DNA of 64,000 nt from Balanoglossus misakiensis (lineage: Eukaryota; Animalia; Hemichordata), in NCBI GenBank assembly GCA_040954595.2, contig CM082587.2:11677598-11741597 (forward strand), in the 5' to 3' direction. The translations under genes and the position numbers were made by a program. Below, in pieces: positions 1 through 31,300 of this stretch. The notes beneath the pieces are model-generated. The model was not told where the DNA came from and ran no database searches. It saw only the letters and a program-made list of their open reading frames with translations. Positions within the stretch are counted from its first letter, which is position 1. The number at the start of each line of letters is the position of its first letter.

Positions 1-521
1 GTTTATTGGTGGCAGTTGAGCTGAGGAGAGCACCTTCCTTCCCGGCACGCCACCAAGTAAAGTTCCACGCCGCCCACCACAGATGCCAGCATTCATTCAT
101 GCGAGTGAGTGTAATTGCAAATTTGCCTATTCTAGATCTGTAATGGAAATGGAGAAAGTACCTTATATTTTCTGTAAAATAGACATTTAATTGGCAAGCC
201 GTCCTGCATCAATTATGAATTGTGTACATGCACTAAAGCGCCCTCACTGCTGGGTGTGTTGTATGGTCTTTAACCCTGTTTCAAATTAGAGTACTTTCTG
301 CAATTTCAAGACAGATCTTACGTGCCATTGGAGAGCTCCATTGACTGGTCATTCATACTGTTTTCATTCATTCATTGCGGCATCAATATATTTTATCTAT
401 TCTAGCCAAAGAGCTTGGCACCTGTTGAAATGAACTCATCTGCTGTGGGCCAGTTTATTGGTGGCAGTTGAGCTGAGGAGAGCACCTTCCTTCCCGGCAC
501 GCCACCAAGTAAAGTTCCACG
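1..521 (+). repeat. Satellite array, end of the upstream block (452-bp monomer)
   Basis: The sequence at 1 (gtttattggtggcagttgag) recurs at 453. The array ends at ...aagtaaagttccacg (521), where cassette sequence begins. Confidence 0.97.
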
Positions 522-2314
522 TGCATTCCTGGCCCTGGTTTTATTTATGTTTACAGACAATATTGCATTTTTGTACAAGTATTTTAATCAACTATAAATT
601 TTGAATGTGTCATTTACCTGAACCGGTCATGTTGACCAGAATGATACATTTCTGCCTTCACTCACCCTATAAATATGTGATTGAGACATAGGTCATTTGC
701 ATAAGCTAACATACCAGAAAGTAAGCATATCTGTTGTTTTCCCTGTGTCACTGCCATCAAAGTAAAAATTAGACGTTGTGTAGAGCAAACTCCAATTTTT
801 TGTTCTCAATAAACATGGATGAATTACATAGAATGTGTTTGTTGTTTACAGTCTTTAAATGACACATTAGATTATGCACTTTACAAAACGTTTCTGAGAA
901 ACAAGTGACTAACTAGTTTCTTTCCACTGTGGCCAACGTGGTTCACTGTTTGTGTCAGAATCTCTCTGTTTTGCAAGGATTTTGAAATCATAGTGGTGAC
1001 ATGCATAGTGAAAATCAGCTACTTTCAAATGTCCGTCATGTTCATGCTGTAATTGAATTTTCAAAGCTGGGCTGGCGTGTTTTTTCTTATTTACATAAGT
1101 ATCACACTTTATACATGTATCTTCATGGGGTTTTTTGAGTCCCGTATTTAGGTCCTCTCTCACAATTTTACGAAATATCGTATAACTGACAGTTGTTCTT
1201 CCCAGAAGAGATTGGTTGGTTATGAACTCTCGGTGTAACTGCGATATACTGTGGTCCGGCGCCAGGTACGGTTTAAATCGAGGATTCCTGCAGTAGTGAG
1301 ATTCTACAATTCTGTGCCTGCGTACGTGTTCAGTGATATCAGTCAGCAAATTTGGATTGAGTTTCCGACGATGCCCTTTGTGTCGGCCCCTTGCATCTGG
1401 CATCAGACCAGTAAAGTTCCATGTGCATTCCTGGCCCTGGTTTTATTTATGTTTACAGACAATATTGCATTTTTGTACAAGTATTTTAATCAACTATAAA
1501 TTTTGAATGTGTCATTTACCTGAACCGGTCATGTTGACCAGAATGATACATTTCTGCCTTCACTCACCCTATAAATATGTGATTGAGACATAGGTCATTT
1601 GCATAAGCTAACATACCAGAAAGTAAGCATATCTGTTGTTTTCCCTGTGTCACTGCCATCAAAGTAAAAATTAGACGTTGTGTAGAGCAAACTCCAATTT
1701 TTTGTTCTCAATAAACATGGATGAATTACATAGAATGTGTTTGTTGTTTACAGTCTTTAAATGACACATTAGATTATGCACTTTACAAAACGTTTCTGAG
1801 AAACAAGTGACTAACTAGTTTCTTTCCACTGTGGCCAACGTGGTTCACTGTTTGTGTCAGAATCTCTCTGTTTTGCAAGGATTTTGAAATCATAGTGGTG
1901 ACATGCATAGTGAAAATCAGCTACTTTCAAATGTCCGTCATGTTCATGCTGTAATTGAATTTTCAAAGCTGGGCTGGCGTGTTTTTTCTTATTTACATAA
2001 GTATCACACTTTATACATGTATCTTCATGGGGTTTTCTGAGTCCCGTATTTAGGTCCTCTCTCACAATTTTACGAAATATCGTATAACTGACAGTTGTTC
2101 TTCCCAGAAGAGATTGGTTGGTTATGAACTCTCGGTGTAACTGCGATATACTGTGGTCCGGCGCCAGGTACGGTTTAAATCGAGGATTCCTGCAGTAGTG
2201 AGATTCTACAATTCTGTGCCTGCGTACGTGTTCAGTGATATCAGTCAGCAAATTTGGATTGAGTTTCCGACGATGCCCTTTGTGTCGGCCCCTTGCATCT
2301 GGCATCAGACCAGT
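511..2314. repeat. 902-bp tandem duplication (511-1412 / 1413-2314)
   Basis: ORF ends at 909 and 1811 are 902 bp apart. I see two differences (520 C/1422 T; 1135 T/2037 C, K vs R). AGT microhomology at the junction (1410-1412). Confidence 0.95.
909..1412 (-). pseudogene. 5'-truncated duplicate of the transposase N-half gene (last ~165 codons)
   Basis: Protein identical to the C-terminal part of the 1811-2767 ORF except one K/R change. It lacks that gene's 5' end and promoter. Confidence 0.85.
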
Positions 2315-2767
2315 TGAACAGTGCATCATTTTGCTTAGAACGGTTCTAGTCCGCCTCTCACTAATGCCAAATAATTTCAGGAATGCATTTTTGCAGACAG
2401 TAACCGTTTCACCGCCTTCATTCACCAGGTGATAACGAACCGATTTCTTGTGTGACTTCATCTGTATATCCATCAGTTTGTAGAGCATCAAGTTCTGTTC
2501 ATTATACACGCGACCATCAAAATATTTTCTCGTGGTGCCTAAAACATGCGTACTCCCAAGCTTCCGCAGACAATTCCCTTGAACGCAGGCGCATTCCAAG
2601 GAAAGACTGTCAATATCTGGAAAAGGGCGATTTTTCCTTGGTTTTTGTCTCGGACACGTCTTTTTAGAATTCCTACGTGGCTTGTTGGCTCGAGCTGACA
2701 GTTCGGTTCTGCGTTGCTGCCACACAGGAATGGGTTCCCACGCATAAGCAACTCCCCGGCAGGCCAT
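1811..2767 (-). CDS. Sola-like transposase, N-terminal (DNA-binding, Cys/His-rich) half, ~318 aa
   Basis: Motifs CACVQGNC, VCKNAFLKLFGISERR, DARGRH, ESHYCR...YL, FRKI...N.GL.KP.EDTC..CD and HL..A are typical of the N-terminal region of Sola-type transposases. First ATG at 2767, TAG at 1811-1813. No catalytic domain. Confidence 0.8.
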   Translation of the reverse strand: MACRGVAYAWEPIPVWQQRRTELSARANKPRRNSKKTCPRQKPRKNRPFPDIDSLSLECACVQGNCLRKLGSTHVLGTTRKYFDGRVYNEQNLMLYKLMDIQMKSHKKSVRYHLVNEGGETVTVCKNAFLKLFGISERRTRTVLSKMMHCSTGLMPDARGRHKGHRRKLNPNLLTDITEHVRRHRIVESHYCRNPRFKPYLAPDHSISQLHREFITNQSLLGRTTVSYTIFRKIVREDLNTGLRKPHEDTCIKCDTYVNKKKHASPALKIQLQHEHDGHLKVADFHYACHHYDFKILAKQRDSDTNSEPRWPQWKETS

Positions 2768-2938
2768 GGTCACAGCTGAAGTATTTGTTCAAGTACTGAC
2801 TGACTAAACGCGGCATGGAACAAACGAACGAACGAACGAACGACTTCACGTTCGGAAAAAAAATCGTTGCGAGCTGTTGGGTGCCTCTATAGTTGTCGGC
2901 AACCGTTCTTTTTTATTGCTAAACAATGCTGTCAGAGC
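2768..2938. promoter_or_regulatory. Putative bidirectional promoter between the two transposase halves, with an (AACG)n microsatellite
   Basis: 171 bp between two divergent ATGs; aacg x5 at ~2823-2842; GTTCGGAA at 2850-2857. Promoter function is inferred from position only. Confidence 0.5.
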
Positions 2939-3952
2939 ATGGAAGGTGTGGTGGAAAACGAACAGAGGTTTTGTACGACCAACGATTGGATGGTGCTACA
3001 TATGGACTTCCACAAGTCATTGCCGGTTCCTAAACTCAGCTCTGAAGACTTTTACTTTAAATCGAAATTGCAAATGAAGCTCCTTGGAATTTACAACGGG
3101 ACAACGGAAAAGATGCATTGTTATGTATGGACAGAGCTCGATAGCAGAAAGTCTCCCGATGAAGTTATTACCTGTCTAAATCACTTTTTTTATAACTCGG
3201 GTGTGACCAGCAGACATGCAGTTATTTACAGCGACAACTGCCGTGCCGAATTCAAGTGTGGGAAGTTAATGTTTTACTATGACTATCTGTTACGAAAGGG
3301 CGTGTTTCGACGAATTGACTATAAAACTCTTGTGGCTGGACACACGTACTCCACCTGTGACCGAGTTTTTGCGTCCATTGAAAGGCATGCAAGTCGTTTC
3401 CAGAGTATAGAGACACCTCACGATTGGACATCTGTGATTCGAGGATCTTCTCTGAATGGGAACATTGGAGTTACGGAGATGACTCACAGAGACTTTTTCA
3501 ATTATTCTGATTTCCTGAAAAATGAGTACGTTGTGCGTTATGCAGATACAAACAATGTAACTTTTTACTACCAAGCCATGCACTATTTTAATTTTGGAGA
3601 AGGAGAAAGGCTTGATACCGACGGCAACCTCAGAACATTTAGTCATGCAGATAAAGTTTGGGTGAGAACATCTCTAGATCCAAGCGAGACCCCGATTGTA
3701 GTCGACTTTAGAAAGAAGAAGCAGAACCGGCGTTTACAAGATTGTACGCTGAACAAACTTTATCAGGAACGTCGACCACTGGCGAGCAAAGTTTGGCGGG
3801 ATCTTCAGAGTTTAGCCAAAAATTACCTGTCTCCGGAGGCAATAGAATTTTATAGGAATCTACCGCTTCAGGAGAGTAGTGGCACCTCTGCAGACCCGTA
3901 CGCCTTTCATGATGATGACGACGACGATGATGATGATATGGGCGGTGGTTGA
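2939..3952 (+). CDS. Sola-like DDD transposase, catalytic (RNase H-fold) half, ~337 aa, with acidic C-terminal tail
   Basis: Motifs MDFHKSLPVPKL..FYFKSKL, GIYN, CYVWTE..SPDEVITCL, YSDNC and LVAGHTYSTCDRVFASIE. Candidate triad D23/D99/D141 (codons 3005, 3233, 3359). First ATG at 2939; the ORF-track start at 2867 is a TTG. Confidence 0.85.
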   Translation: MEGVVENEQRFCTTNDWMVLHMDFHKSLPVPKLSSEDFYFKSKLQMKLLGIYNGTTEKMHCYVWTELDSRKSPDEVITCLNHFFYNSGVTSRHAVIYSDNCRAEFKCGKLMFYYDYLLRKGVFRRIDYKTLVAGHTYSTCDRVFASIERHASRFQSIETPHDWTSVIRGSSLNGNIGVTEMTHRDFFNYSDFLKNEYVVRYADTNNVTFYYQAMHYFNFGEGERLDTDGNLRTFSHADKVWVRTSLDPSETPIVVDFRKKKQNRRLQDCTLNKLYQERRPLASKVWRDLQSLAKNYLSPEAIEFYRNLPLQESSGTSADPYAFHDDDDDDDDDMGGG

Positions 3953-4270
3953 ACAAACTGTCCTTTTCATGACGACAGTGATTTTGGATATTTGATGTGC
4001 GTGCACAGTTTATATGTAATATTTTCACACGAACGAGTTTTGACTGAATTTGATTAAAGAATGTACTCGATAATTAACAAATGTGCTGAATCGTGGTTAT
4101 TATGTTGTTAATTTTTGTTTGTTTGTTTGTTTGTTTGTAAACAATTTCCGTTCATTCAACTGGCTACAAAGTTGGATTTTTGTACTGGGAAGCGATAAAC
4201 TCGCACATCAAAACCGGGGAGACTCGATCATTTTTCCCTGCAGGTAGCCTGAAAAGCACCCGGGCAGAGA

Positions 4271-4344
4271 TTACGTCATATATGGTCCACTTTAATACGA
4301 AATTATGCAAATGTGACATTTCACGGAAACGGCGTATATAAAAG
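4271..4344 (+). promoter_or_regulatory. Pol II promoter of the wHTH-SET gene
   Basis: TATATAAAAG at 4335-4344 (~100 bp before ATG 4436), octamer ATGCAAAT at 4305-4312, CRE/ATF-like TTACGTCA at 4271-4278. Confidence 0.55.
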
Positions 4345-4435
4345 CGACCCTGGGCTATTGTTCGGAATGCGTCATCGACGAGAGAGTGACTGATAATTCT
4401 TCTACCTCGAGTCAACCATTCTGTATATACTGAAC

Positions 4436-5762
4436 ATGGCTAGCTGGCGCAGGAAGAGACAAGGCAATGTGCGGTCTGTAATCAACGAACGGCACCGCTC
4501 AGTTCAGTGTCCCTTTCTTCAAAAGTGGATCGGTGAGCAATTGGTATTTTCAGGTCGTTCAGAGGATGAAGTCCAGTCCAGTACTGTATTTGAGAGCTAC
4601 AAATGTTGGGTTGAAAACTATTCGTCGGCGGACAATCAAGTAATGATTATGGTTACTAAAGCTCGATTTTTCAAGGTGAGAATGATCGCATTTTTCTTCC
4701 CCCCCCCCCTCCCTCCCCCAAGGGACTCGTTTTCTGTCTCTTTTAAACCTGTAACTTAACGAAAAGGAAGTTTTTCACATATCTCTTTGTTGACACTATA
4801 GCAATTTGGAGCGCGGATGCTTCAAGAGAATAGCGTTACCAAATCAAAGTCGGCCGGGGTTAATATTTATAGAGGTGTTCGTCTGAAAGCTGGTTCGCGA
4901 AGAATCTCAACGGGGAAACCTGAGCACAGTGTACTTCAGACCAGGGCAAGGGCATTTCTTGATGACGCCAGCGTGACCGTTCCGATCGAGGTAAGAATGG
5001 TGTTTTGTTTGGACTAGGACAATAGAACGTTGCAATGAGTGTGTCAATGGGTGTCCAAGTGCAAACGTGGTCGGCTTCTGTCCACAAATGCCATTAATTT
5101 TAGGCAGGATTTATAAAATTGTCAATGAAGAATACAAAAATGAAAAACAATAGTTAATAGCAAACGGGTAGGATTGCAAGGGCTTGTAAAACGGTACACA
5201 CTGTACCAGGAAGTTTGCAACACTAATGAAGAATGTATATGATATATTTAGGTGAGAACTGTTCGCGATCGCCGGGACGCAGGACGGTGCGCGTTTTCGA
5301 CGAGGGATCTTCAAGCCTGGAACGTCGTCTGCGAATACCGGGGCACGGTTATTAGCGTTGAAGAAGCTAGTCGGCGTGATGAACTTTACAGGGCAGAGGG
5401 GAAACGACCACGCATGTTTCATCTCTACATTGGAAAGAGACACGTTGTGTGAGTGTATCACTTAGTCGAATATATGGTCATATATTGCAAAGCATCTGTC
5501 GAAATAGAAAACGTAATATTGTCTATATTTTCCTCATTAACGCAGCATTGACGGATACGATGTCCCAGCCGGTGAAGAAAATTTAGCGGGCCTAATAAAT
5601 CACAGTCAGCAGAACGCCAACTTGGTACCGGTTCGGATCGGAGAGCGCCTGGTTTTCTTTGCAACCAGGAATCTTTGTCAGGGAGTAGAGCTTTTGTATG
5701 ATTACGGTGACGGGGGTGAAGAGGATTTCTTCAGTGGTTCTCAAACTTTTCCTGAAAATTAA
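4436..5762 (+). CDS. Spliced gene, ~280 aa: RFX/D5-like winged helix fused to a SET8/PR-Set7-like SET domain; exons 4436-4675, 4802-4990, 5252-5448, 5546-5762
   Basis: GT-AG introns (AAG|gtgag..tatag, GAG|gtaag..tttag, GT|gtgagt..cgcag; phases 0,0,2) join one open frame. SET motifs: GRCAFSTRDL..VCEYRG.VIS.EEA.RR..LY, IDG, GLINHS..NAN, FATRNL.QG.ELLYDYGD. The N-terminus WI..QL..VFESYKCWVE..KARFFKQF..IYRGVRLK resembles an RFX/D5 winged helix (less certain). Confidence 0.85.
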
Positions 5763-5808
5763 GGCATTAACACATCAACGCTTCGGGATGTCGTAACGGC
5801 GGCAAGGC

Positions 5809-5828
5809 GGGGGGGGGGGGGGGGGGGG
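5809..5828 (+). repeat. G20 homopolymer downstream of the SET gene
   Basis: Read directly; also 20 G in copy 2 (28441-28460). Confidence 0.9.
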
Positions 5829-6670
5829 CGTGAAAATGTTTGTATCAGGAACAAAATTCCCGTGCAAATCACCTTGATCCGGGTGGGTGGACTATTCGCG
5901 ACAAATGTTGAAATCATACAAAGCATTTTACTTAATTAACCCATTTTTTTCATTTATTTGTTTACAGTTTACAACGTCATAGAGAAGTTGAACTAGAGAC
6001 TGGATCAGCGTGGGTGACACCATAGTACACCAATGTTTTCTTCAGTTTGATTCAATTGTAATTTAAAACTGAGATTGCCTAACGCTTTCCCAGATTTTTT
6101 TAACCACTGAGAAACTGTGGGTTTTTTTCTGGGTTTTGGTGCGAGGTGATCTCAGTCAGTGGTGTTAATTTAATTAATCATTTTCTTTTCCTATTTACGT
6201 CGACTGAAATGTATTTTGATAGGTGATAGTCATACCATAAAAAAATCTTACGGCGCGACTGCCAAAATGTACATTTATTTGTCCGTTCCAAGTTATTTTG
6301 TGTATGTGTGATGGGTGCCGGTGACTGTGCAGGGTTGATTTCCCTAGAGCGACTGTTATATTCGTTTTCCAACGATGATGAATTTACATGTTATTTGCTT
6401 GGCATTTTGACGCAGAGACACTTCTGAAAACACAAACCTATTAATTATGCCACGGGTGTAAATTGATCACATTAAAAGAGGCTTTAGACGTTTGCCGCGA
6501 GCTCCTGGTGGGCAGAATCTTGTCAGCCCAAATTTGACTATAAGTACATAGCCAATGATGTGACGCTCTCCCACATCCTTCGCCGCGCCTTTTCGCTGAT
6601 TTACAGCATCTTGCGTAAACACTGTCATTTGATCTTGCTTGGCAGAAGTCAACTTGCTCTATACTACATT

Positions 6671-7036
6671 ATGGCGGCCAAGCTCAACTGCATATCAGAT
6701 AATGCCAAGGAGCGTTTGAGAGGCATCCTCGCCAGAAGGAGTCGCGTTTCCGGTGACTGTGTGCTCTGGACGGGTGCAGCTTGTCGAAACGGCTATGGCT
6801 CTATTACGTTCAGAGATGAGAACACTCTAACCGCCTATGTCCATCACATTGCACTCCTAATTAACGGAGTGCAATTGGTGGGCAGGCGGTTAGAGTGTTC
6901 TCATCTTTGCAACGAAAAGCTATGCATCCGCCCAGAGCACATTGTCCAGGAAACGCGACTCCTAAACATTTCACGAAAGACGTGCTTTAAATCCCCAAAA
7001 GGGGAGTGTCACCACGATCCCAGGTGCCTAAGGTGA
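6671..7036 (+). CDS. His-Cys box / His-Me finger zinc-binding endonuclease (I-PpoI-like), ~121 aa
   Basis: Motifs DCVLWTGA..NGYG, AYVHHIA, ECSHLCNEKLCIRPEHIVQET..NISRKTC and C.H.PRC. First ATG at 6671; the ORF-track start at 6560 is a GTG. Confidence 0.85.
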   Translation: MAAKLNCISDNAKERLRGILARRSRVSGDCVLWTGAACRNGYGSITFRDENTLTAYVHHIALLINGVQLVGRRLECSHLCNEKLCIRPEHIVQETRLLNISRKTCFKSPKGECHHDPRCLR

Positions 7037-7288
7037 GTAATCCTCTTCTCATTTGATATGTATTGTGTGACCCTGCAGTTGAAACGCTTTCATCAATAAT
7101 TTGCGGCGCGTGGGTAATCTCGGTGTTATTGACAATGCAGCCGGCCCAAACATTTTTAAATTAACACTGTTTCTGACTGTATTAACGAAATGTCCAATTT
7201 GCAAGTAGCCTATAGACAACCCTTTTGAATGAGTTTTGTCTCGTTGAGATTTTATACATAAGGAACAATCTAGATTTATTTTAGAAGA

Positions 7289-7708
7289 CACTGTTCTTTT
7301 AAAACAGCTAGCATAATACAGCTAAATTTCGGAATTTCCGGACAATTTTCGGAATTCCTTTTAAATTTGAGAAATTTTTCATCAGATATAAGTGTTACTA
7401 TTTATTGGACATGTTTTTATCATTGTTTACTTTTTAAGGTCATTCTCATCCCCCCCCCCCCCCCCCAAAAAAAAGCCGCTTTAGGCTTCATGTTCAGTAA
7501 AAAATCTGGAAAGTTCAGCTGAATTTTACACTGATCACACATTTTTGGGAAGGTCTGGCGCAAAATAAAGGATGACAAATGTAAATCTAATGTCACATTT
7601 GTAAACCTCTAAGTATTGTACACTCATTCTATTAAGTATATGCAAATAGTACGGATAATTTTTTCGGAATGTGGAATTCCGAAATTAGTTCGGAACGTGT
7701 TAGCAGTG
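7289..7708. mobile_element. Possible MITE-like insertion (CACTG...CAGTG, flanking AAGA direct repeat, subterminal inverted TTCGGAAT motifs)
   Basis: AAGA at 7285-7288 and 7709-7712. ctaaatttcggaatttcc (~7322) pairs imperfectly with ggaattccgaaattag (~7673). The perfect terminal match is only 5 bp. Confidence 0.3.
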
Positions 7709-8019
7709 AAGAGATCACCACTGAGGGTTGGAAGGCCTTGCCAGAAATTAACGCGTAAAGTACGCCCTCACAGGCCATGTAAACAAGGTCAAATAAGGCC
7801 GTCTGGCAAACGAATGATTAATTCAACGCGCCATTTGAGCCGAGCTGAGTTGGTCTGAGTTGCGTATCACACAGACTTAGGCTGAATGTCAGTGGAGTAA
7901 CCAGTCCGTTTTAGATTTACCAATGATGTGAATTTAATTTCTTCACCCAGAAAAACAGAACACAACTTGTCTGCAACATGATGCTGGAGGTGACACATGA
8001 CAGAGAAGTGGATCCGCGT

Positions 8020-8355
8020 TGTCAACACAGATGCCAGCATTCAAAAGGGGAGTGCCACCTGCTAAAATCAACTCATCTGCTGTTGGCCCATTTTACCTGT
8101 GGCAACTGTTCAGAGGAGACAACGTTTATTCCGTGCAAGCCAACACGCAATGTTGGGGTCTACCTGTCAACACAGATGCAAGCATTCATGTGAGTGAGTA
8201 TCAGGACTGACCTTGTTTTGCTGAATAATTCATAATGCCTATTTTAGAATTCTTAGAGGCATTTGGAGTTCATTGCCTGGTCAACCAAACTACACCCCTT
8301 AACAGCTGAAACAAAATGCGTATTGTGTTCATTCATTCATTGCTTCAATATATAT
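8020..8355 (+). repeat. Diverged copy of the short satellite monomer inside the cassette
   Basis: Collinear matches to the monomer: cacctgctaaaatcaactcatctgctgttggcc, cacagatgcaagcattcatgtgagtgagt, gcctattttagaattctta, ctggtca, ttcattcattcattgc. Confidence 0.85.
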
Positions 8356-8617
8356 AGGCAACATGAGTATCAAGTAGCACTATTTGTTTACGATTGTATT
8401 CATGAAAACTTCCCACTAACAATTCCACAGTTAATATTGAACACATTTATCCAACAAGGTCAAAAGAAAAAGGGAATCTTCTGGTTCCAAAATACGCCAC
8501 AAATGTGGGTCAACATACAGTGAAATATTATGGTGCTCAAATATGCAACATATCAAATCTGTCTCATCAAAGTCATGCTTTAAAAAAGAATTGAAAAGGT
8601 ATTATTTATCCATTTGA
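8344..8617 (+). pseudogene. Decayed 3' end of a non-LTR retrotransposon ORF2 (L2/CR1-group-like)
   Basis: Frameshifted pieces FNIYRQHEYQVALFVYDCIHENFP / LVPKYATNVGQHTVKYYGAQICN / FKKELKRYYL* resemble the conserved ORF2 C-terminus (...Y.G..IWN.....FK..LK). Confidence 0.6.
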
Positions 8618-8668
8618 CTGCTGTATTTTCAGAAGGAAAACAAACTGAATTTGGTTTTTCATGTACAA

Positions 8669-11600
8669 ATATTTTCTGTAAAATAGACATTTAATTGGCA
8701 AGCCGTCCTGCATCAATTATTAATTGTGTACATGCACTAAAGCGCCCTCACTGCTGGGTGTGTTGTATGGTCTTTAACCCTGTTTCAAATTAGAGTACTT
8801 TCTGCAATTTCAAGACAGATCTTACGTGCCATTGGAGAGCTCCATTGACTGGTCATTCATACTGTTTTCATTCATTCATTGCGGCATCAATATATTTTAT
8901 GTATTCTAGCCAAAGAGCTTGGCACCTGTTGAAATGAACTCATCTGCTGTGGGCCAGTTTATTGGTGGCAGTTGAGCTGAGGAGAGCACCTTCCTTCCCG
9001 GCACGCCACCAAGTAAAGTTCCACGCCGCCCACCACAGATGCCAGCATTCATTCATGCGAGTGAGTGTAATTGCAAATTTGCCTATTCTAGATCTGTAAT
9101 GGAAATGGAGAAAGTACCTTATATTTTCTGTAAAATAGACATTTAATTGGCAAGCCGTCCTGCATCAATTATTAATTGTGTACATGCACTAAAGCGCCCT
9201 CACTGCTGGGTGTGTTGTATGGTCTTTAACCCTGTTTCAAATTAGAGTACTTTCTGCAATTTCAAGACAGATCTTACGTGCCATTGGAGAGCTCCATTGA
9301 CTGGTCATTCATACTGTTTTCATTCATTCATTGCGGCATCAATATATTTTATCTATTCTAGCCAAAGAGCTTGGCACCTGTTGAAATGAACTCATCTGCT
9401 GTGGGCCAGTTTATTGGTGGCAGTTGAGCTGAGGAGAGCACCTTCCTTCCCGGCACGCCACCAAGTAAAGTTCCACGCCGCCCACCACAGATGCCAGCAT
9501 TCATTCATGCGAGTGAGTGTAATTGCAAATTTGCCTATTCTAGAATTACGTGCCATTGGAGAGCTCCATTGACTGGTCATTCATACTGTTTTCATTCATT
9601 CATTGCGGCATCAATATATTTTATCTATTCTAGCCAAAGAGCTTGGCACCTGTTGAAATGAACTCATCTGCTGTGGGCCAGTTTATTGGTGGCAGTTGAG
9701 CTGAGGAGAGCACCTTCCTTCCCGGCACGCCACCAAGTAAAGTTCCACGCCGCCCACCACAGATGCCAGCATTCATTCATGCGAGTGAGTGTAATTGCAA
9801 ATTTGCCTATTCTAGATCTGTAATGGAAATGGAGAAAGTACCTTATATTTTCTGTAAAATAGACATTTAATTGGCAAGCCGTCCTGCATCAATTATGAAT
9901 TGTGTACATGCACTAAAGCGCCCTCACTGCTGGGTGTGTTGTATGGTCTTTAACCCTGTTTCAAATTAGAGTACTTTCTGCAATTTCAAGACAGATCTTA
10001 CGTGCCATTGGAGAGCTCCATTGACTGGTCATTCATACTGTTTTCATTCATTCATTGCGGCATCAATATATTTTATCTATTCTAGCCAAAGAGCTTGGCA
10101 CCTGTTGAAATGAACTCATCTGCTGTGGGCCAGTTTATTGGTGGCAGTTGAGCTGAGGAGAGCACCTTCCTTCCCGGCACGCCACCAAGTAAAGTTCCAC
10201 GCCGCCCACCACAGATGCCAGCATTCATTCATGCGAGTGAGTGTAATTGCAAATTTGCCTATTCTAGAATCTTACGTGCCATTGGAGAGCTCCATTGACT
10301 GGTCATTCATACTGTTTTCATTCATTCATTGCGGCATCAATATATTTTATCTATTCTAGCCAAAGAGCTTGGCACCTGTTGAAATGAACTCATCTGCTGT
10401 GGGCCAGTTTATTGGTGGCAGTTGAGCTGAGGAGAGCACCTTCCTTCCCGGCACGCCACCAAGTAAAGTTCCACGCCGCCCACCACAGATGCCAGCATTC
10501 ATTCATGCGAGTGAGTGTAATTGCAAATTTGCCTATTCTAGATCTGTAATGGAAATGGAGAAAGTACCTTATATTTTCTGTAAAATAGACATTTAATTGG
10601 CAAGCCGTCCTGCATCAATTATTAATTGTGTACATGCACTAAAGCGCCCTCACTGCTGGGTGTGTTGTATGGTCTTTAACCCTGTTTCAAATTAGAGTAC
10701 TTTCTGCAATTTCAAGACAGATCTTACGTGCCATTGGAGAGCTCCATTGACTGGTCATTCATACTGTTTTCATTCATTCATTGCGGCATCAATATATTTT
10801 ATCTATTCTAGCCAAAGAGCTTGGCACCTGTTGAAATGAACTCATCTGCTGTGGGCCAGTTTATTGGTGGCAGTTGAGCTGAGAAGAGCACCTTCCTTCC
10901 CGGCACGCCACCAAGTAAAGTTCCACGCCGCCCACCACAGATGCCAGCATTCATTCATGCGAGTGAGTGTAATTGCAAATTTGCCTATTCTAGATCTGTA
11001 ATGGAAATGGAGAAAGTACCTTATATTTTCTGTAAAATAGACATTTAATTGGCAAGCCGTCCTGCATCAATTATGAATTGTGTACATGCACTAAAGCGCC
11101 CTCACTGCTGGGTGTGTTGTATGGTCTTTAACCCTGTTTCAAATTAGAGTACTTTCTGCAATTTCAAGACAGATCTTACGTGCCATTGGAGAGCTCCATT
11201 GACTGGTCATTCATACTGTTTTCATTCATTCATTGCGGCATCAATATATTTTATCTATTCTAGCCAAAGAGCTTGGCACCTGTTGAAATGAACTCATCTG
11301 CTGTGGGCCAGTTTATTGGTGGCAGTTGAGCTGAGGAGAGCACCTTCCTTCCCGGCACGCCACCAAGTAAAGTTCCACGCCGCCCACCACAGATGCCAGC
11401 ATTCATTCATGCGAGTGAGTGTAATTGCAAATTTGCCTATTCTAGATCTGTAATGGAAATGGAGAAAGTACCTTATATTTTCTGTAAAATAGACATTTAA
11501 TTGGCAAGCCGTCCTGCATCAATTATGAATTGTGTACATGCACTAAAGCGCCCTCACTGCTGGGTGTGTTGTATGGTCTTTAACCCTGTTTCAAATTAGA

Positions 11601-14600
11601 GTACTTTCTGCAATTTCAAGACAGATCTTACGTGCCATTGGAGAGCTCCATTGACTGGTCATTCATACTGTTTTCATTCATTCATTGCGGCATCAATATA
11701 TTTTATCTATTCTAGCCAAAGAGCTTGGCACCTGTTGAAATGAACTCATCTGCTGTGGGCCAGTTTATTGGTGGCAGTTGAGCTGAGGAGAGCACCTTCC
11801 TTCCCGGCACGCCACCAAGTAAAGTTCCACGCCGCCCACCACAGATGCCAGCATTCATTCATGCGAGTGAGTGTAATTGCAAATTTGCCTATTCTAGATC
11901 TGTAATGGAAATGGAGAAAGTACCTTATATTTTCTGTAAAATAGACATTTAATTGGCAAGCCGTCCTGCATCAATTATGAATTGTGTACATGCACTAAAG
12001 CGCCCTCACTGCTGGGTGTGTTGTATGGTCTTTAACCCTGTTTCAAATTAGAGTACTTTCTGCAATTTCAAGACAGATCTTACGTGCCATTGGAGAGCTC
12101 CATTGACTGGTCATTCATACTGTTTTCATTCATTCATTGCGGCATCAATATATTTTATCTATTCTAGCCAAAGAGCTTGGCACCTGTTGAAATGAACTCA
12201 TCTGCTGTGGGCCAGTTTATTGGTGGCAGTTGAGCTGAGGAGAGCACCTTCCTTCCCGGCACGCCACCAAGTAAAGTTCCACGCCGCCCACCACAGATGC
12301 CAGCATTCATTCATGCGAGTGAGTGTAATTGCAAATTTGCCTATTCTAGATCTGTAATGGAAATGGAGAAAGTACCTTATATTTTCTGTAAAATAGACAT
12401 TTAATTGGCAAGCCGTCCTGCATCAATTATGAATTGTGTACATGCACTAAAGCGCCCTCACTGCTGGGTGTGTTGTATGGTCTTTAACCCTGTTTCAAAT
12501 TAGAGTACTTTCTGCAATTTCAAGACAGATCTTACGTGCCATTGGAGAGCTCCATTGACTGGTCATTCATACTGTTTTCATTCATTCATTGCGGCATCAA
12601 TATATTTTATCTATTCTAGCCAAAGAGCTTGGCACCTGTTGAAATGAACTCATCTGCTGTGGGCCAGTTTATTGGTGGCAGTTGAGCTGAGAAGAGCACC
12701 TTCCTTCCCGGCACGCCACCAAGTAAAGTTCCACGCCGCCCACCACAGATGCCAGCATTCATTCATGCGAGTGAGTGTAATTGCAAATTTGCCTATTCTA
12801 GAATCTTACGTGCCATTGGAGAGCTCCATTGACTGGTCATTCATACTGTTTTCATTCATTCATTGCGGCATCAATATATTTTATCTATTCTAGCCAAAGA
12901 GCTTGGCACCTGTTGAAATGAACTCATCTGCTGTGGGCCAGTTTATTGGTGGCAGTTGAGCTGAGGAGAGCACCTTCCTTCCCGGGACGCCACCAAGTAA
13001 AGTTCCACGCCGCCCACCACAGATGCCAGCATTCATTCATGCGAGTGAGTGTAATTGCAAATTTGCCTATTCTAGATTCTTACGTGCCATTGGAGAGCTC
13101 CATTGACTGGTCATTCATACTGTTTTCATTCATTCATTGCGGCATCAATATATTTTATCTATTCTAGCCAAAGAGCTTGGCACCTGTTGAAATGAACTCA
13201 TCTGCTGTGGGCCAGTTTATTGGTGGCAGTTGAGCTGAGGAGAGCACCTTCCTTCCCGGCACGCCACCAAGTAAAGTTCCACGCCGCCCACCACAGATGC
13301 CAGCATTCATTCATGCGAGTGAGTGTAATTGCAAATTTGCCTATTCTAGATCTGTAATGGAAATGGAGAAAGTACCTTATATTTTCTGTAAAATAGACAT
13401 TTAATTGGCAAGCCGTCCTGCATCAATTATTAATTGTGTACATGCACTAAAGCGCCCTCACTGCTGGGTGTGTTGTATGGTCTTTAACCCTGTTTCAAAT
13501 TAGAGTACTTTCTGCAATTTCAAGACAGATCTTACGTGCCATTGGAGAGCTCCATTGACTGGTCATTCATACTGTTTTCATTCATTCATTGCGGCATCAA
13601 TATATTTTATCTATTCTAGCCAAAGAGCTTGGCACCTGTTGAAATGAACTCATCTGCTGTGGGCCAGTTTATTGGTGGCAGTTGAGCTGAGGAGAGCACC
13701 TTCCTTCCCGGCACGCCACCAAGTAAAGTTCCACGCCGCCCACCACAGATGCCAGCATTCATTCATGCGAGTGAGTGTAATTGCAAATTTGCCTATTCTA
13801 GATCTGTAATGGAAATGGAGAAAGTACCTTATATTTTCTGTAAAATAGACATTTAATTGGCAAGCCGTCCTGCATCAATTATTAATTGTGTACATGCACT
13901 AAAGCGCCCTCACTGCTGGGTGTGTTGTATGGTCTTTAACCCTGTTTCAAATTAGAGTACTTTCTGCAATTTCAAGACAGATCTTACGTGCCATTGGAGA
14001 GCTCCATTGACTGGTCATTCATACTGTTTTCATTCATTCATTGCGGCATCAATATATTTTATCTATTCTAGCCAAAGAGCTTGGCACCTGTTGAAATGAA
14101 CTCATCTGCTGTGGGCCAGTTTATTGGTGGCAGTTGAGCTGAGGAGAGCACCTTCCTTCCCGGCACGCCACCAAGTAAAGTTCCACGCCGCCCACCACAG
14201 ATGCCAGCATTCATTCATGCGAGTGAGTGTAATTGCAAATTTGCCTATTCTAGAATTACGTGCCATTGGAGAGCTCCATTGACTGGTCATTCATACTGTT
14301 TTCATTCATTCATTGCGGCATCAATATATTTTATCTATTCTAGCCAAAGAGCTTGGCACCTGTTGAAATGAACTCATCTGCTGTGGGCCAGTTTATTGGT
14401 GGCAGTTGAGCTGAGGAGAGCACCTTCCTTCCCGGCACGCCACCAAGTAAAGTTCCACGCCGCCCACCACAGATGCCAGCATTCATTCATGCGAGTGAGT
14501 GTAATTGCAAATTTGCCTATTCTAGATCTGTAATGGAAATGGAGAAAGTACCTTATATTTTCTGTAAAATAGACATTTAATTGGCAAGCCGTCCTGCATC

Positions 14601-17600
14601 AATTATGAATTGTGTACATGCACTAAAGCGCCCTCACTGCTGGGTGTGTTGTATGGTCTTTAACCCTGTTTCAAATTAGAGTACTTTCTGCAATTTCAAG
14701 ACAGATCTTACGTGCCATTGGAGAGCTCCATTGACTGGTCATTCATACTGTTTTCATTCATTCATTGCGGCATCAATATATTTTATCTATTCTAGCCAAA
14801 GAGCTTGGCACCTGTTGAAATGAACTCATCTGCTGTGGGCCAGTTTATTGGTGGCAGTTGAGCTGAGGAGAGCACCTTCCTTCCCGGCACGCCACCAAGT
14901 AAAGTTCCACGCCGCCCACCACAGATGCCAGCATTCATTCATGCGAGTGAGTGTAATTGCAAATTTGCCTATTCTAGAATCTTACGTGCCATTGGAGAGC
15001 TCCATTGACTGGTCATTCATACTGTTTTCATTCATTCATTGCGGCATCAATATATTTTATCTATTCTAGCCAAAGAGCTTGGCACCTGTTGAAATGAACT
15101 CATCTGCTGTGGGCCAGTTTATTGGTGGCAGTTGAGCTGAGGAGAGCACCTTCCTTCCCGGCACGCCACCAAGTAAAGTTCCACGCCGCCCACCACAGAT
15201 GCCAGCATTCATTCATGCGAGTGAGTGTAATTGCAAATTTGCCTATTCTAGATCTGTAATGGAAATGGAGAAAGTACCTTATATTTTCTGTAAAATAGAC
15301 ATTTAATTGGCAAGCCGTCCTGCATCAATTATTAATTGTGTACATGCACTAAAGCGCCCTCACTGCTGGGTGTGTTGTATGGTCTTTAACCCTGTTTCAA
15401 ATTAGAGTACTTTCTGCAATTTCAAGACAGATCTTACGTGCCATTGGAGAGCTCCATTGACTGGTCATTCATACTGTTTTCATTCATTCATTGCGGCATC
15501 AATATATTTTATCTATTCTAGCCAAAGAGCTTGGCACCTGTTGAAATGAACTCATCTGCTGTGGGCCAGTTTATTGGTGGCAGTTGAGCTGAGAAGAGCA
15601 CCTTCCTTCCCGGCACGCCACCAAGTAAAGTTCCACGCCGCCCACCACAGATGCCAGCATTCATTCATGCGAGTGAGTGTAATTGCAAATTTGCCTATTC
15701 TAGATCTGTAATGGAAATGGAGAAAGTACCTTATATTTTCTGTAAAATAGACATTTAATTGGCAAGCCGTCCTGCATCAATTATGAATTGTGTACATGCA
15801 CTAAAGCGCCCTCACTGCTGGGTGTGTTGTATGGTCTTTAACCCTGTTTCAAATTAGAGTACTTTCTGCAATTTCAAGACAGATCTTACGTGCCATTGGA
15901 GAGCTCCATTGACTGGTCATTCATACTGTTTTCATTCATTCATTGCGGCATCAATATATTTTATCTATTCTAGCCAAAGAGCTTGGCACCTGTTGAAATG
16001 AACTCATCTGCTGTGGGCCAGTTTATTGGTGGCAGTTGAGCTGAGGAGAGCACCTTCCTTCCCGGCACGCCACCAAGTAAAGTTCCACGCCGCCCACCAC
16101 AGATGCCAGCATTCATTCATGCGAGTGAGTGTAATTGCAAATTTGCCTATTCTAGATCTGTAATGGAAATGGAGAAAGTACCTTATATTTTCTGTAAAAT
16201 AGACATTTAATTGGCAAGCCGTCCTGCATCAATTATGAATTGTGTACATGCACTAAAGCGCCCTCACTGCTGGGTGTGTTGTATGGTCTTTAACCCTGTT
16301 TCAAATTAGAGTACTTTCTGCAATTTCAAGACAGATCTTACGTGCCATTGGAGAGCTCCATTGACTGGTCATTCATACTGTTTTCATTCATTCATTGCGG
16401 CATCAATATATTTTATCTATTCTAGCCAAAGAGCTTGGCACCTGTTGAAATGAACTCATCTGCTGTGGGCCAGTTTATTGGTGGCAGTTGAGCTGAGGAG
16501 AGCACCTTCCTTCCCGGCACGCCACCAAGTAAAGTTCCACGCCGCCCACCACAGATGCCAGCATTCATTCATGCGAGTGAGTGTAATTGCAAATTTGCCT
16601 ATTCTAGATCTGTAATGGAAATGGAGAAAGTACCTTATATTTTCTGTAAAATAGACATTTAATTGGCAAGCCGTCCTGCATCAATTATGAATTGTGTACA
16701 TGCACTAAAGCGCCCTCACTGCTGGGTGTGTTGTATGGTCTTTAACCCTGTTTCAAATTAGAGTACTTTCTGCAATTTCAAGACAGATCTTACGTGCCAT
16801 TGGAGAGCTCCATTGACTGGTCATTCATACTGTTTTCATTCATTCATTGCGGCATCAATATATTTTATCTATTCTAGCCAAAGAGCTTGGCACCTGTTGA
16901 AATGAACTCATCTGCTGTGGGCCAGTTTATTGGTGGCAGTTGAGCTGAGGAGAGCACCTTCCTTCCCGGCACGCCACCAAGTAAAGTTCCACGCCGCCCA
17001 CCACAGATGCCAGCATTCATTCATGCGAGTGAGTGTAATTGCAAATTTGCCTATTCTAGATCTGTAATGGAAATGGAGAAAGTACCTTATATTTTCTGTA
17101 AAATAGACATTTAATTGGCAAGCCGTCCTGCATCAATTATGAATTGTGTACATGCACTAAAGCGCCCTCACTGCTGGGTGTGTTGTATGGTCTTTAACCC
17201 TGTTTCAAATTAGAGTACTTTCTGCAATTTCAAGACAGATCTTACGTGCCATTGGAGAGCTCCATTGACTGGTCATTCATACTGTTTTCATTCATTCATT
17301 GCGGCATCAATATATTTTATCTATTCTAGCCAAAGAGCTTGGCACCTGTTGAAATGAACTCATCTGCTGTGGGCCAGTTTATTGGTGGCAGTTGAGCTGA
17401 GAAGAGCACCTTCCTTCCCGGCACGCCACCAAGTAAAGTTCCACGCCGCCCACCACAGATGCCAGCATTCATTCATGCGAGTGAGTGTAATTGCAAATTT
17501 GCCTATTCTAGAATCTTACGTGCCATTGGAGAGCTCCATTGACTGGTCATTCATACTGTTTTCATTCATTCATTGCGGCATCAATATATTTTATCTATTC

Positions 17601-20600
17601 TAGCCAAAGAGCTTGGCACCTGTTGAAATGAACTCATCTGCTGTGGGCCAGTTTATTGGTGGCAGTTGAGCTGAGGAGAGCACCTTCCTTCCCGGGACGC
17701 CACCAAGTAAAGTTCCACGCCGCCCACCACAGATGCCAGCATTCATTCATGCGAGTGAGTGTAATTGCAAATTTGCCTATTCTAGATTCTTACGTGCCAT
17801 TGGAGAGCTCCATTGACTGGTCATTCATACTGTTTTCATTCATTCATTGCGGCATCAATATATTTTATCTATTCTAGCCAAAGAGCTTGGCACCTGTTGA
17901 AATGAACTCATCTGCTGTGGGCCAGTTTATTGGTGGCAGTTGAGCTGAGGAGAGCACCTTCCTTCCCGGCACGCCACCAAGTAAAGTTCCACGCCGCCCA
18001 CCACAGATGCCAGCATTCATTCATGCGAGTGAGTGTAATTGCAAATTTGCCTATTCTAGATCTGTAATGGAAATGGAGAAAGTACCTTATATTTTCTGTA
18101 AAATAGACATTTAATTGGCAAGCCGTCCTGCATCAATTATTAATTGTGTACATGCACTAAAGCGCCCTCACTGCTGGGTGTGTTGTATGGTCTTTAACCC
18201 TGTTTCAAATTAGAGTACTTTCTGCAATTTCAAGACAGATCTTACGTGCCATTGGAGAGCTCCATTGACTGGTCATTCATACTGTTTTCATTCATTCATT
18301 GCGGCATCAATATATTTTATCTATTCTAGCCAAAGAGCTTGGCACCTGTTGAAATGAACTCATCTGCTGTGGGCCAGTTTATTGGTGGCAGTTGAGCTGA
18401 GGAGAGCACCTTCCTTCCCGGCACGCCACCAAGTAAAGTTCCACGCCGCCCACCACAGATGCCAGCATTCATTCATGCGAGTGAGTGTAATTGCAAATTT
18501 GCCTATTCTAGAATTACGTGCCATTGGAGAGCTCCATTGACTGGTCATTCATACTGTTTTCATTCATTCATTGCGGCATCAATATATTTTATCTATTCTA
18601 GCCAAAGAGCTTGGCACCTGTTGAAATGAACTCATCTGCTGTGGGCCAGTTTATTGGTGGCAGTTGAGCTGAGGAGAGCACCTTCCTTCCCGGCACGCCA
18701 CCAAGTAAAGTTCCACGCCGCCCACCACAGATGCCAGCATTCATTCATGCGAGTGAGTGTAATTGCAAATTTGCCTATTCTAGATCTGTAATGGAAATGG
18801 AGAAAGTACCTTATATTTTCTGTAAAATAGACATTTAATTGGCAAGCCGTCCTGCATCAATTATGAATTGTGTACATGCACTAAAGCGCCCTCACTGCTG
18901 GGTGTGTTGTATGGTCTTTAACCCTGTTTCAAATTAGAGTACTTTCTGCAATTTCAAGACAGATCTTACGTGCCATTGGAGAGCTCCATTGACTGGTCAT
19001 TCATACTGTTTTCATTCATTCATTGCGGCATCAATATATTTTATCTATTCTAGCCAAAGAGCTTGGCACCTGTTGAAATGAACTCATCTGCTGTGGGCCA
19101 GTTTATTGGTGGCAGTTGAGCTGAGGAGAGCACCTTCCTTCCCGGCACGCCACCAAGTAAAGTTCCACGCCGCCCACCACAGATGCCAGCATTCATTCAT
19201 GCGAGTGAGTGTAATTGCAAATTTGCCTATTCTAGATCTGTAATGGAAATGGAGAAAGTACCTTATATTTTCTGTAAAATAGACATTTAATTGGCAAGCC
19301 GTCCTGCATCAATTATGAATTGTGTACATGCACTAAAGCGCCCTCACTGCTGGGTGTGTTGTATGGTCTTTAACCCTGTTTCAAATTAGAGTACTTTCTG
19401 CAATTTCAAGACAGATCTTACGTGCCATTGGAGAGCTCCATTGACTGGTCATTCATACTGTTTTCATTCATTCATTTCGGCATCAATATATTTTATCTAT
19501 TCTAGCCAAAGAGCTTGGCACCTGTTGAAATGAACTCATCTGCTGTGGGCCAGTTTATTGGTGGCAGTTGAGCTGAGAAGAGCACCTTCCTTCCCGGCAC
19601 GCCACCAAGTAAAGTTCCACGCCGCCCACCACAGATGCCAGCATTCATTCATGCGAGTGAGTGTAATTGCAAATTTGCCTATTCTAGAATCTTACGTGCC
19701 ATTGGAGAGCTCCATTGACTGGTCATTCATACTGTTTTCATTCATTCATTGCGGCATCAATATATTTTATCTATTCTAGCCAAAGAGCTTGGCACCTGTT
19801 GAAATGAACTCATCTGCTGTGGGCCAGTTTATTGGTGGCAGTTGAGCTGAGGAGAGCACCTTCCTTCCCGGGACGCCACCAAGTAAAGTTCCACGCCGCC
19901 CACCACAGATGCCAGCATTCATTCATGCGAGTGAGTGTAATTGCAAATTTGCCTATTCTAGATTCTTACGTGCCATTGGAGAGCTCCATTGACTGGTCAT
20001 TCATACTGTTTTCATTCATTCATTGCGGCATCAATATATTTTATCTATTCTAGCCAAAGAGCTTGGCACCTGTTGAAATGAACTCATCTGCTGTGGGCCA
20101 GTTTATTGGTGGCAGTTGAGCTGAGGAGAGCACCTTCCTTCCCGGCACGCCACCAAGTAAAGTTCCACGCCGCCCACCACAGATGCCAGCATTCATTCAT
20201 GCGAGTGAGTGTAATTGCAAATTTGCCTATTCTAGATCTGTAATGGAAATGGAGAAAGTACCTTATATTTTCTGTAAAATAGACATTTAATTGGCAAGCC
20301 GTCCTGCATCAATTATTAATTGTGTACATGCACTAAAGCGCCCTCACTGCTGGGTGTGTTGTATGGTCTTTAACCCTGTTTCAAATTAGAGTACTTTCTG
20401 CAATTTCAAGACAGATCTTACGTGCCATTGGAGAGCTCCATTGACTGGTCATTCATACTGTTTTCATTCATTCATTGCGGCATCAATATATTTTATCTAT
20501 TCTAGCCAAAGAGCTTGGCACCTGTTGAAATGAACTCATCTGCTGTGGGCCAGTTTATTGGTGGCAGTTGAGCTGAGGAGAGCACCTTCCTTCCCGGCAC

Positions 20601-23153: not shown

Positions 23154-23540
23154 TGCATTCCTGGCCCTGGTTTTATTTATGTTTACAGACAATATTGCAT
23201 TTTTGTACAAGTATTTTAATCAACTATAAATTTTGAATGTGTCATTTACCTGAACCGGTCATGTTGACCAGAATGATACATTTCTGCCTTCACTCACCCT
23301 ATAAATATGTGATTGAGACATAGGTCATTTGCATAAGCTAACATACCAGAAAGTAAGCATATCTGTTGTTTTCCCTGTGTCACTGCCATCAAAGTAAAAA
23401 TTAGACGTTGTGTAGAGCAAACTCCAATTTTTTGTTCTCAATAAACATGGATGAATTACATAGAATGTGTTTGTTGTTTACAGTCTTTAAATGACACATT
23501 AGATTATGCACTTTACAAAACGTTTCTGAGAAACAAGTGA

Positions 23541-24044
23541 CTAACTAGTTTCTTTCCACTGTGGCCAACGTGGTTCACTGTTTGTGTCAGAATCTCTCTG
23601 TTTTGCAAGGATTTTGAAATCATAGTGGTGACATGCATAGTGAAAATCAGCTACTTTCAAATGTCCGTCATGTTCATGCTGTAATTGAATTTTCAAAGCT
23701 GGGCTGGCGTGTTTTTTCTTATTTACATAAGTATCACACTTTATACATGTATCTTCATGGGGTTTTTTGAGTCCCGTATTTAGGTCCTCTCTCACAATTT
23801 TACGAAATATCGTATAACTGACAGTTGTTCTTCCCAGAAGAGATTGGTTGGTTATGAACTCTCGGTGTAACTGCGATATACTGTGGTCCGGCGCCAGGTA
23901 CGGTTTAAATCGAGGATTCCTGCAGTAGTGAGATTCTACAATTCTGTGCCTGCGTACGTGTTCAGTGATATCAGTCAGCAAATTTGGATTGAGTTTCCGA
24001 CGATGCCCTTTGTGTCGGCCCCTTGCATCTGGCATCAGACCAGT
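23541..24044 (-). pseudogene. Truncated duplicate of the transposase N-half (copy 2)
   Basis: Same translation as 909-1412. Confidence 0.85.
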
Positions 24045-24442
24045 AAAGTTCCATGTGCATTCCTGGCCCTGGTTTTATTTATGTTTACAGACAATATTGC
24101 ATTTTTGTACAAGTATTTTAATCAACTATAAATTTTGAATGTGTCATTTACCTGAACCGGTCATGTTGACCAGAATGATACATTTCTGCCTTCACTCACC
24201 CTATAAATATGTGATTGAGACATAGGTCATTTGCATAAGCTAACATACCAGAAAGTAAGCATATCTGTTGTTTTCCCTGTGTCACTGCCATCAAAGTAAA
24301 AATTAGACGTTGTGTAGAGCAAACTCCAATTTTTTGTTCTCAATAAACATGGATGAATTACATAGAATGTGTTTGTTGTTTACAGTCTTTAAATGACACA
24401 TTAGATTATGCACTTTACAAAACGTTTCTGAGAAACAAGTGA

Positions 24443-25399: not shown

Positions 25400-25570
25400 G
25401 GTCACAGCTGAAGTATTTGTTCAAGTACTGACTGACTAAACGCGGCATGGAACAAACGAACGAACGAACGAACGACTTCACGTTCGGAAAAAAAATCGTT
25501 GCGAGCTGTTGGGTGCCTCTATAGTTGTCGGCAACCGTTCTTTTTTATTGCTAAACAATGCTGTCAGAGC

Positions 25571-26584: not shown

Positions 26585-27067
26585 ACAAACTGTCCTTTTC
26601 ATGACGACAGTGATTTTGGATATTTGATGTGCGTGCACAGTTTATATGTAATATTTTCACACGAACGAGTTTTGACTGAATTTGATTAAAGAATGTACTC
26701 GATAATTAACAAATGTGCTGAATCGTGGTTATTATGTTGTTAATTTTTGTTTGTTTGTTTGTTTGTTTGTAAACAATTTCCGTTCATTCAACTGGCTACA
26801 AAGTTGGATTTTTGTACTGGGAAGCGATAAACTCGCACATCAAAACCGGGGAGACTCGATCATTTTTCCCTGCAGGTAGCCTGAAAAGCACCCGGGCAGA
26901 GATTACGTCATATATGGTCCACTTTAATACGAAATTATGCAAATGTGACATTTCACGGAAACGGCGTATATAAAAGCGACCCTGGGCTATTGTTCGGAAT
27001 GCGTCATCGACGAGAGAGTGACTGATAATTCTTCTACCTCGAGTCAACCATTCTGTATATACTGAAC

Positions 27068-31249: not shown

Positions 31250-31300
31250 CTGCTGTATTTTCAGAAGGAAAACAAACTGAATTTGGTTTTTCATGTACAA

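Follow-up and report, generated by a model that had tools for sequence, protein, structure and literature searches.

We analysed a 64,000-bp stretch of the genome of the hemichordate Balanoglossus misakiensis (assembly GCA_040954595.2, contig CM082587.2, positions 11,677,598 to 11,741,597, forward strand), referred to below as the window. In this window a satellite is interrupted by an 8147-bp non-satellite block at 522-8668, at 23154-31300, and again from 63175. The gene core of the first copy (approximately 522-7307) holds the two halves of a DUF7869/Sola1-like transposase as divergent genes (open reading frames ORF1 and ORF2), a four-exon gene joining a winged helix to a SET domain, and a gene for a His-Me nuclease (ORF4); older repeat debris follows at 7308-8668. 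An initial annotation had proposed four intact frames within 522-8668, and ORF1, ORF2, the four-exon gene, and ORF4 are indeed all intact.

ORF1 (1811-2767, minus strand) encodes 318 amino acids and represents a stand-alone N-terminal half of the transposase, whose Cys/His motifs likely bind DNA. ORF2 (2939-3952, plus strand) encodes the catalytic C-terminal half of 337 amino acids, with residues D23, D99, D141, and H135. It matches DUF7869 (PF25273) with an E-value of 1e-14, and its structural model, built from a 58-row alignment (predicted local distance difference test score 92.7), resembles integrase and IstA cores with an RNase H fold. We take the DUF7869 family to be that of Sola1. ORF1 has no Pfam match; HMMER returned 2597 protein matches for it, of which the best 150 are listed. 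A word-index protein search with ORF1 confirmed none of 276 candidates, which reflects the limited sensitivity of that search given the 2597 HMMER matches. The two halves correspond to the two ends of one protein, as 76 of 160 proteins match both half-profiles in the order N-then-C, and the ORF1 family aligns to the N-terminal part of one fused protein with 99.6% probability. The split point lies just before the strand bearing the first catalytic Asp.

Sequence comparison indicates that the split is an old, conserved family trait and not damage. Among the matches listed, the six best full-length ones to ORF1 are all stand-alone proteins of 306-347 amino acids. Eleven N-halves including ORF1 stop 22-40 residues past one conserved His, several of them with a W..PP.W-like tail; 55 fused relatives continue for 155-440 residues beyond it. 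One N-half (P0050) is truncated by a contig end; P0165, from the same cluster, extends 11 residues further. In a 70-row tree from a quick search (the careful search was unfinished), 14 split-labelled rows, three of which (P0010, P0011, and P0049) are fragments labelled by score, lie on one side of a branch with a Shimodaira-Hasegawa-like approximate likelihood-ratio (SH-aLRT) support of 100, against 56 fused rows. All rows were found through similarity to ORF1, and short fused-type fragments and fused rows below 500 amino acids were left out of the tree.

The C-terminal halves agree with this picture. Two stand-alone C-halves (P0001 and P0002) begin at the same site as ORF2, with 51% and 47% identity, respectively; in a more recent annotation P0002 is longer by 38 residues at the N-terminus. 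Three C-halves group together (support 100) near the fused proteins P0147, P0088, and P0086, and the N-halves fall weakly (support 73) among P0088, P0086, and their neighbours. That both kinds of half lie near the same fused proteins is consistent with a single fission. D23, D99, D141, and H135 are kept in all three C-halves, and the three Asp residues agree with 54, 54, and 55 of the 55 fused relatives, respectively. The split transposase of DDD type claimed by the initial annotation is thus borne out by the DUF7869 match, the fold, the intact triad, and a split that is conserved in its clade. ORF2 ends in an Asp-rich tail (3908-3936) that is absent in both homologous C-halves.

Named relatives come from Saccoglossus, Oculina, Actinostola, and Nematostella, that is, from corals, anemones, and a hemichordate. 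They are multi-copy, often broken, and 28-41% identical. Two Nematostella gene models are more than 90% alike, and a cluster of six relatives has full and broken members, two of which lie on contigs that are both 455,956 nt long. The relatives of the transposase therefore look mobile. For P0001 and P0004 the longest listed contig is 2400 nt in each case, as might be expected of a compact gene pair.

The 171-bp spacer between the divergent genes (2768-2938) is likely a bidirectional promoter. It contains an (AACG)n tract (2823-2842), the length of which varies in sequencing run X1 (see below), and a GTTG..CAAC palindrome (2892-2903); a similar palindrome is found at 8018. We take the spacer palindrome to resemble the X-box of RFX proteins.

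ORF4 (6671-7036, plus strand) encodes a His-Me nuclease of 121 amino acids of the His-Cys box, I-PpoI type. Aligned to I-PpoI, it retains S97, H98, H110, E114, and N119 (I-PpoI numbering), and its initial identification as a His-Me endonuclease was correct. A long imperfect inverted repeat lies within the coding region (6737-6963, plus strand) and is predicted to form one stem of 87 pairs, 81 of them Watson-Crick and 6 G-U. None of 100 dinucleotide shuffles folded as strongly (z -17.3). The whole nuclease coding region reached -191.6 kcal/mol, compared to -123.1 kcal/mol for the best of 200 synonymous recodings (z -13.8), and when the block was scanned in 300-nt windows, the sole outlier was the one that overlaps the hairpin. 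Since the synonymous recodings are far weaker, the hairpin is not forced by the protein sequence. One arm encodes CVLWTG...GYG and the other SHLC...HIVQE...N; as family motifs are thus present on both arms, the hairpin is not accounted for by simple inverted duplication either. Our reading of the predicted fold is that the hairpin may be under selection as a self-limiting transcript. A neutral rival is the repeated template-switch correction of a quasi-palindrome.

The nuclease has two His residues (HH) where 24 of 26 KolobokP rows carry Arg, counted by eye on the available supplement page of PMC9587614. Intron-encoded relatives on that page vary at the Arg position, indicating that Arg is not essential. 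We speculate that adenosine-to-inosine editing at 6846 (codon His59) would yield Arg, although the A at this position is paired in the predicted fold.

The winged-helix SET gene (4436-5762, plus strand) encodes 280 amino acids in four exons (4436-4675, 4802-4990, 5252-5448, and 5546-5762) separated by three GT-AG introns; a model with an alternative donor gives 283 amino acids. Exon 1 matches Pox_D5-type winged-helix clusters with scores of 0.94-0.97, the family being present on 25-71% of the cluster members. Exons 3-4 form the SET domain, in which the catalytic motifs NHS, ELLYDYG, and EY.G are present. The two SET exons were searched separately. For exon 4, 14 of 15 Protein Data Bank matches are KMT5A, the top match being another SET protein; for exon 3, KMT2C/D rank above KMT5A. 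Because exon 3 favours KMT2C/D, specificity for H4K20 is only a guess. Of the SET8-type methyltransferase with a winged helix-turn-helix that had been predicted here, the winged helix and the SET domain were found, and the SET8/H4K20 specificity was not supported.

The second copy of the block (23154-31300) is 100% identical to the first, with 0 differences over 8147 bp. The third (63175-64000) comprises only the first 826 bp, as the window ends inside it; of the at least three copies initially reported, two are whole. Satellite array 1 (8669-23153, plus strand, 14,485 bp, with 452-bp and 272/274-bp units) lies between the first two copies, and array 2 (31301-63174, plus strand, 31,874 bp) between the second and third. 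The left junctions of all three copies share one monomer position, as first reported, namely 357. However, comparing the window with itself at an offset of 22,632 bp gives no mismatch between base 1 and base 23076, and the monomer variants that follow copy 1 come again in the same order behind copy 2. The self-match and the recurring variant order indicate that one junction was amplified, and not that a site was targeted repeatedly. The shared junction is the product of tandem amplification of one 22.6-kb unit consisting of cassette and satellite. Three independent insertions are ruled out by the mismatch-free self-match, and the earlier idea that the copies had mobilised independently is not supported. 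The ratio of observed to expected CpG is 0.84-1.17 in the four genes compared to 0.46 in the satellite.

Logan contigs of organism A, from runs X1 and X2 of one sample, cover the block. Runs X3 and X4 (organism B) gave only short pieces of low depth and were not used. Long X1 contigs over the block have a depth of 693-808, similar for all four genes, although contig depth in these runs does not equal copy number. A 902-bp part of the block (1410-2311) is duplicated in tandem at 508-1409 with 2 differences; the duplicate includes about 14 bp of satellite and a truncated ORF1 copy of 164 amino acids (909-1403, minus strand), which the initial annotation did not mention. The depth of this part in X1 is 1564 against about 750 elsewhere, indicating that the duplication is real and ruling out an assembly artefact. 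No indel within a coding exon is present among the X1 contig differences listed. Between 4147 and 5716 there are 12 letter differences between the main X1 form and the window, and the window-type allele is absent at those sites, which fits an array homogenised within its lineage. Of the coding changes listed for the main form, 4 are replacements and 3 are silent, numbers too small to derive a rate. Among the matches listed, minor X1 contigs show 8 changes in SET exon 4, of which 6 are synonymous, one replaces Arg by Lys, and one would give a stop if it occurred alone. One contig links a diverged SET exon 4 to sequence like that from 6205 onward.

The satellite itself contains two kinds of unit. 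Of 118 anchor intervals, 78 measure 452 bp, 25 measure 274 bp, 12 measure 272 bp, and 1 measures 275 bp, while 2 contain the block. The long unit consists of a 273-bp core and a 175-bp segment (for example 9095-9269, plus strand), which reads TGT...ACA, is flanked by GATC, and is absent from the short units; its inverted ends are imperfect, matching at 78% over 37 columns. Like the nuclease hairpin, this feature of the satellite went unremarked in the initial annotation. Four junction types were found among 38 short units (15, 12, 10, and 1), none of which has the precise 273-bp empty site; otherwise the units are 0-2 bases apart. Judged from these junctions, the short units look like the result of several excisions that were imprecisely repaired; alternatively, deletion occurred at the base of a hairpin. 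The flanking GATC differs from the AWWT of Sola1 target sites, and the segment ends are unlike those of the cassette (5 mismatches in 18 in the best matches). Strings of monomer variants recur throughout the satellite (8669-63174), giving it a higher-order structure. The idea of a ribozyme or other noncoding RNA satellite was dropped, as a 452-nt stretch of it shows no unusual fold (z -0.7). Rfam gave no matches in positions 1-10500 of the window.

The right part of the block (7308-8668), not mentioned in the initial annotation, is debris and not part of the gene cassette. An insert resembling a miniature inverted-repeat transposable element (MITE) occupies 7308-7703, with diverged terminal inverted repeats (TIRs) and CAG on both flanks; other genomic copies appear as loose ends at 7325 and 7702. 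Its left TIR is less well preserved than that of those other copies. Old satellite-family sequence follows at 8023-8353 (plus strand). Satellite motifs start again here at monomer position 363, which is nearly in register with the left junction; the only echo there is a weak one of 6 bp. The sequence includes a monomer piece of 71% identity (8053-8199), and the short-unit junction recurs at about 8237-8255. The last piece, at 8354-8600 (plus strand), is a decayed fragment without a Pfam match that resembles a long interspersed nuclear element (LINE), presumably the 3' end of a CR1/L2-type element. In the main X1 form, 24 other letters precede satellite-like sequence after 8669; the right junction in the window (8660-8672) may therefore carry a small deletion.

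Additional diverged monomers appear in the Logan contigs, and in one X2 contig the left end of the block adjoins old-type satellite, although X2 contains many joints ending in GATC and its joints need caution. Together, the old monomer inside the block, the near-register resumption, and the old-type joint suggest that the genes have long resided in this satellite family, likely since before its present form.

Relatives of the cassette were also sought elsewhere. A word-index protein search with the nuclease confirmed none of 4 candidates, and pattern scans of metagenome contigs gave no confirmed relative. One locus (L001) carries an animal-type N-half of the split clade at 3917-4963. Its contig, 4965 bp long, belongs to a bacterial metagenome-assembled genome and is probably animal DNA contaminating that assembly. 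The L001 genome gave 0 matches to the C-half alignment or to PF05551, but the controls were silent too, so this is not evidence of absence. That the four genes form one unit is plausible.

We interpret the gene core as a Sola1-like DNA transposon in which two head-to-head genes encode the transposase, likely with the winged-helix SET protein and the His-Me nuclease as accessories, and give this interpretation about an even chance. ORF1 and ORF2 would be co-expressed from the 171-bp spacer, and the two halves would reassemble into one transposase. The element would have lodged long ago in the satellite family, and unequal exchange, accompanied by concerted evolution, would now account for most of its multiplication in place of fresh cut-and-paste. 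Breaks made by the nuclease could promote this exchange, by analogy with what has been proposed for KolobokP. The hairpin in the mRNA might limit nuclease output by dicing to small RNA, by editing, or by blocked translation. The winged helix could bring the SET domain to DNA, where nearby chromatin would be methylated.

Several observations weigh against this interpretation. We found no TIR: when the left end (501-620) was compared with 7037-8700, 56 of 200 shuffles gave an inverted match as good as the best one observed. Nor was there a clear target-site duplication (TSD) at the ends of the block. The first reading of the 8.1-kb block as a bounded transposon is therefore not supported, and the array may no longer contain the ends of the element. 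Relatives of the nuclease or of the winged-helix exon with DNA context were not found, and L001 has no match to the C-half, SET gene, or nuclease in the 3.9 kb upstream of its N-half; its contig ends at the 3' end of the gene. In all three split C-halves Q104 is replaced by E, compared to Q in 54 of 55 fused relatives, and position 25 is H or S; with such changes at conserved positions, catalysis may differ. The supporting joints are single contigs from one sample, and one of the eight changes in the paralogous SET exon 4 would by itself give a stop. Finally, the MITE-like insert, the LINE-like piece, and the old monomer were carried passively, so passengers are possible in the block.

This last point leads to the strongest rival, namely that only the transposase pair is a real unit, and that the SET and nuclease genes came from other elements or from the host, were swept up together with the MITE-like insert and the LINE-like piece, and were amplified passively. 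The nested debris at 7308-8668, the lack of shared ends, the L001 locus without the other genes upstream, and the fact that identical copies require no activity of the element all speak for such a patchwork. However, the four frames and the three GT-AG introns have stayed intact while the adjoining LINE-like piece and the old monomer decayed. In addition, the genes are tightly packed and, unlike the satellite, not depleted of CpG, and the diverged variants of SET exon 4 are mostly synonymous, one of them being joined to a cassette-like spacer. We consider a patchwork possible but doubtful.

We also considered a stronger version of the transposon interpretation, in which the genes would form a self-maintaining satellite system. 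The two-chain transposase would still excise the 175-bp segment, the winged-helix SET protein would mark the array, and a homing-type nuclease would expand it, gated by its own hairpin, which would be diced to silencing RNA or edited from adenosine to inosine at His59. We regard this as unlikely.

Also unlikely is a domesticated host array, in which immobile genes serve the host, for example in satellite maintenance or rearrangement, much as in a tandemly arrayed gene family whose spacer is repetitive. This would account for the missing ends, for the fixed differences of the main X1 form, as expected from concerted evolution, for the long association with the satellite family, and for the altered residues near the active site. 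Conserved host genes, however, are not expected to have multi-copy, often broken, and highly diverged relatives (28-41% identity), and the array carries along the junk 902-bp duplication. A virus-like origin, in which a larger element (Polinton-like or a large DNA virus) had captured the transposase and now survives only as regulatory and nuclease genes, is very improbable. It is favoured by the winged helix, which resembles clusters of the Pox_D5 family that include viral ones; however, no capsid, polymerase, or packaging gene is present among the ORFs of the window, the SET gene has spliceosomal introns, and low-sensitivity pattern scans of viral contigs gave 0 confirmed relatives.

A natural split of a DDD transposase, kept in both cnidarian and hemichordate relatives, gives a means of uncoupling DNA recognition from catalysis in the Sola1 superfamily, for which we found no mechanistic data in the literature searched. 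A nuclease gene in which the arms of a long hairpin encode the catalytic motifs suggests a testable form of self-restraint in selfish nucleases. If the four genes act together, satellite turnover would be linked to enzymes encoded inside the satellite, and the unequal-crossover model of KolobokP would become testable. Neither a split Sola transposase nor this gene set was found described in the literature; Repbase lay outside that search and may already hold the family. The hairpin in the nuclease coding sequence is the only ingredient of the element without precedent.

Transposition functions are divided over two genes in PIF/Harbinger elements and in RAG1-RAG2 as well. In those systems the catalytic protein and its partner are unrelated; here, in contrast, one ancestral polypeptide is cut just before the first catalytic Asp. 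With Sola1 the element shares the DUF7869 match, the DDD triad, and halves that are collinear with the 76 proteins matching both half-profiles. The available text of PMC3845634 describes for Sola1 a single ORF of 630 amino acids and a 4-bp TSD of AWWT/AWDT (for the Sola1 hallmarks see also the accessible parts of PMC3627910 and PMC5751038). Compared to these hallmarks, the element has two divergent genes on opposite strands, with no TIR or AWWT TSD found; it also has SET and nuclease genes and sits tandemly in a satellite.

A large Sola1 element with an accessory gene is Sola1-1_Ec32 of Ectocarpus, according to the available text of PMC12477816. It is similar in pairing DNA binding with a methyltransferase, and nested insertions are likewise fixed among copies of giant elements; unlike here, the accessory is ParB plus a DNA methyltransferase, and that text mentions neither a split nor a nuclease. 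SET methyltransferases are known as accessories of HarbingerS, oomycete MuDR, and the red-algal Plavaka PAG2 (PMC12730594 and bioRxiv 2025.02.11.637652, in their accessible parts). These belong to other transposase superfamilies, and no winged-helix fusion or His-Me nuclease is mentioned for them there. The accessible parts of PMC6431247 and bioRxiv 2021.09.26.461848 hold nothing further on the element.

A parallel to our proposal is KolobokP, which in the available text combines a DDD/E transposase with an I-PpoI-type His-Me nuclease and forms multimers with repeats of about 450 bp between internal regions, for which unequal crossover induced by the nuclease has been proposed (Kojima and Bao 2022, PMC9587614). 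The two share the I-PpoI-type nuclease residues S97, H98, H110, E114, and N119. However, KolobokP has a Kolobok transposase with a C/DxxH signature in one ORF and not a DUF7869-type one, and the words 'SET' and 'hairpin' both occur 0 times in the main text of PMC9587614. Its repeats are single LTDRs (about 450 or 660 bp, with RR...YY TIRs), in contrast to the arrays of 14-32 kb in the window. The 452-bp unit as an LTDR was ruled out, as it consists of a 273-bp core and a 175-bp segment with its own inverted ends and occurs in long arrays; the match in length looks coincidental. The element is not a member of KolobokP, and it works like KolobokP in our proposal only.

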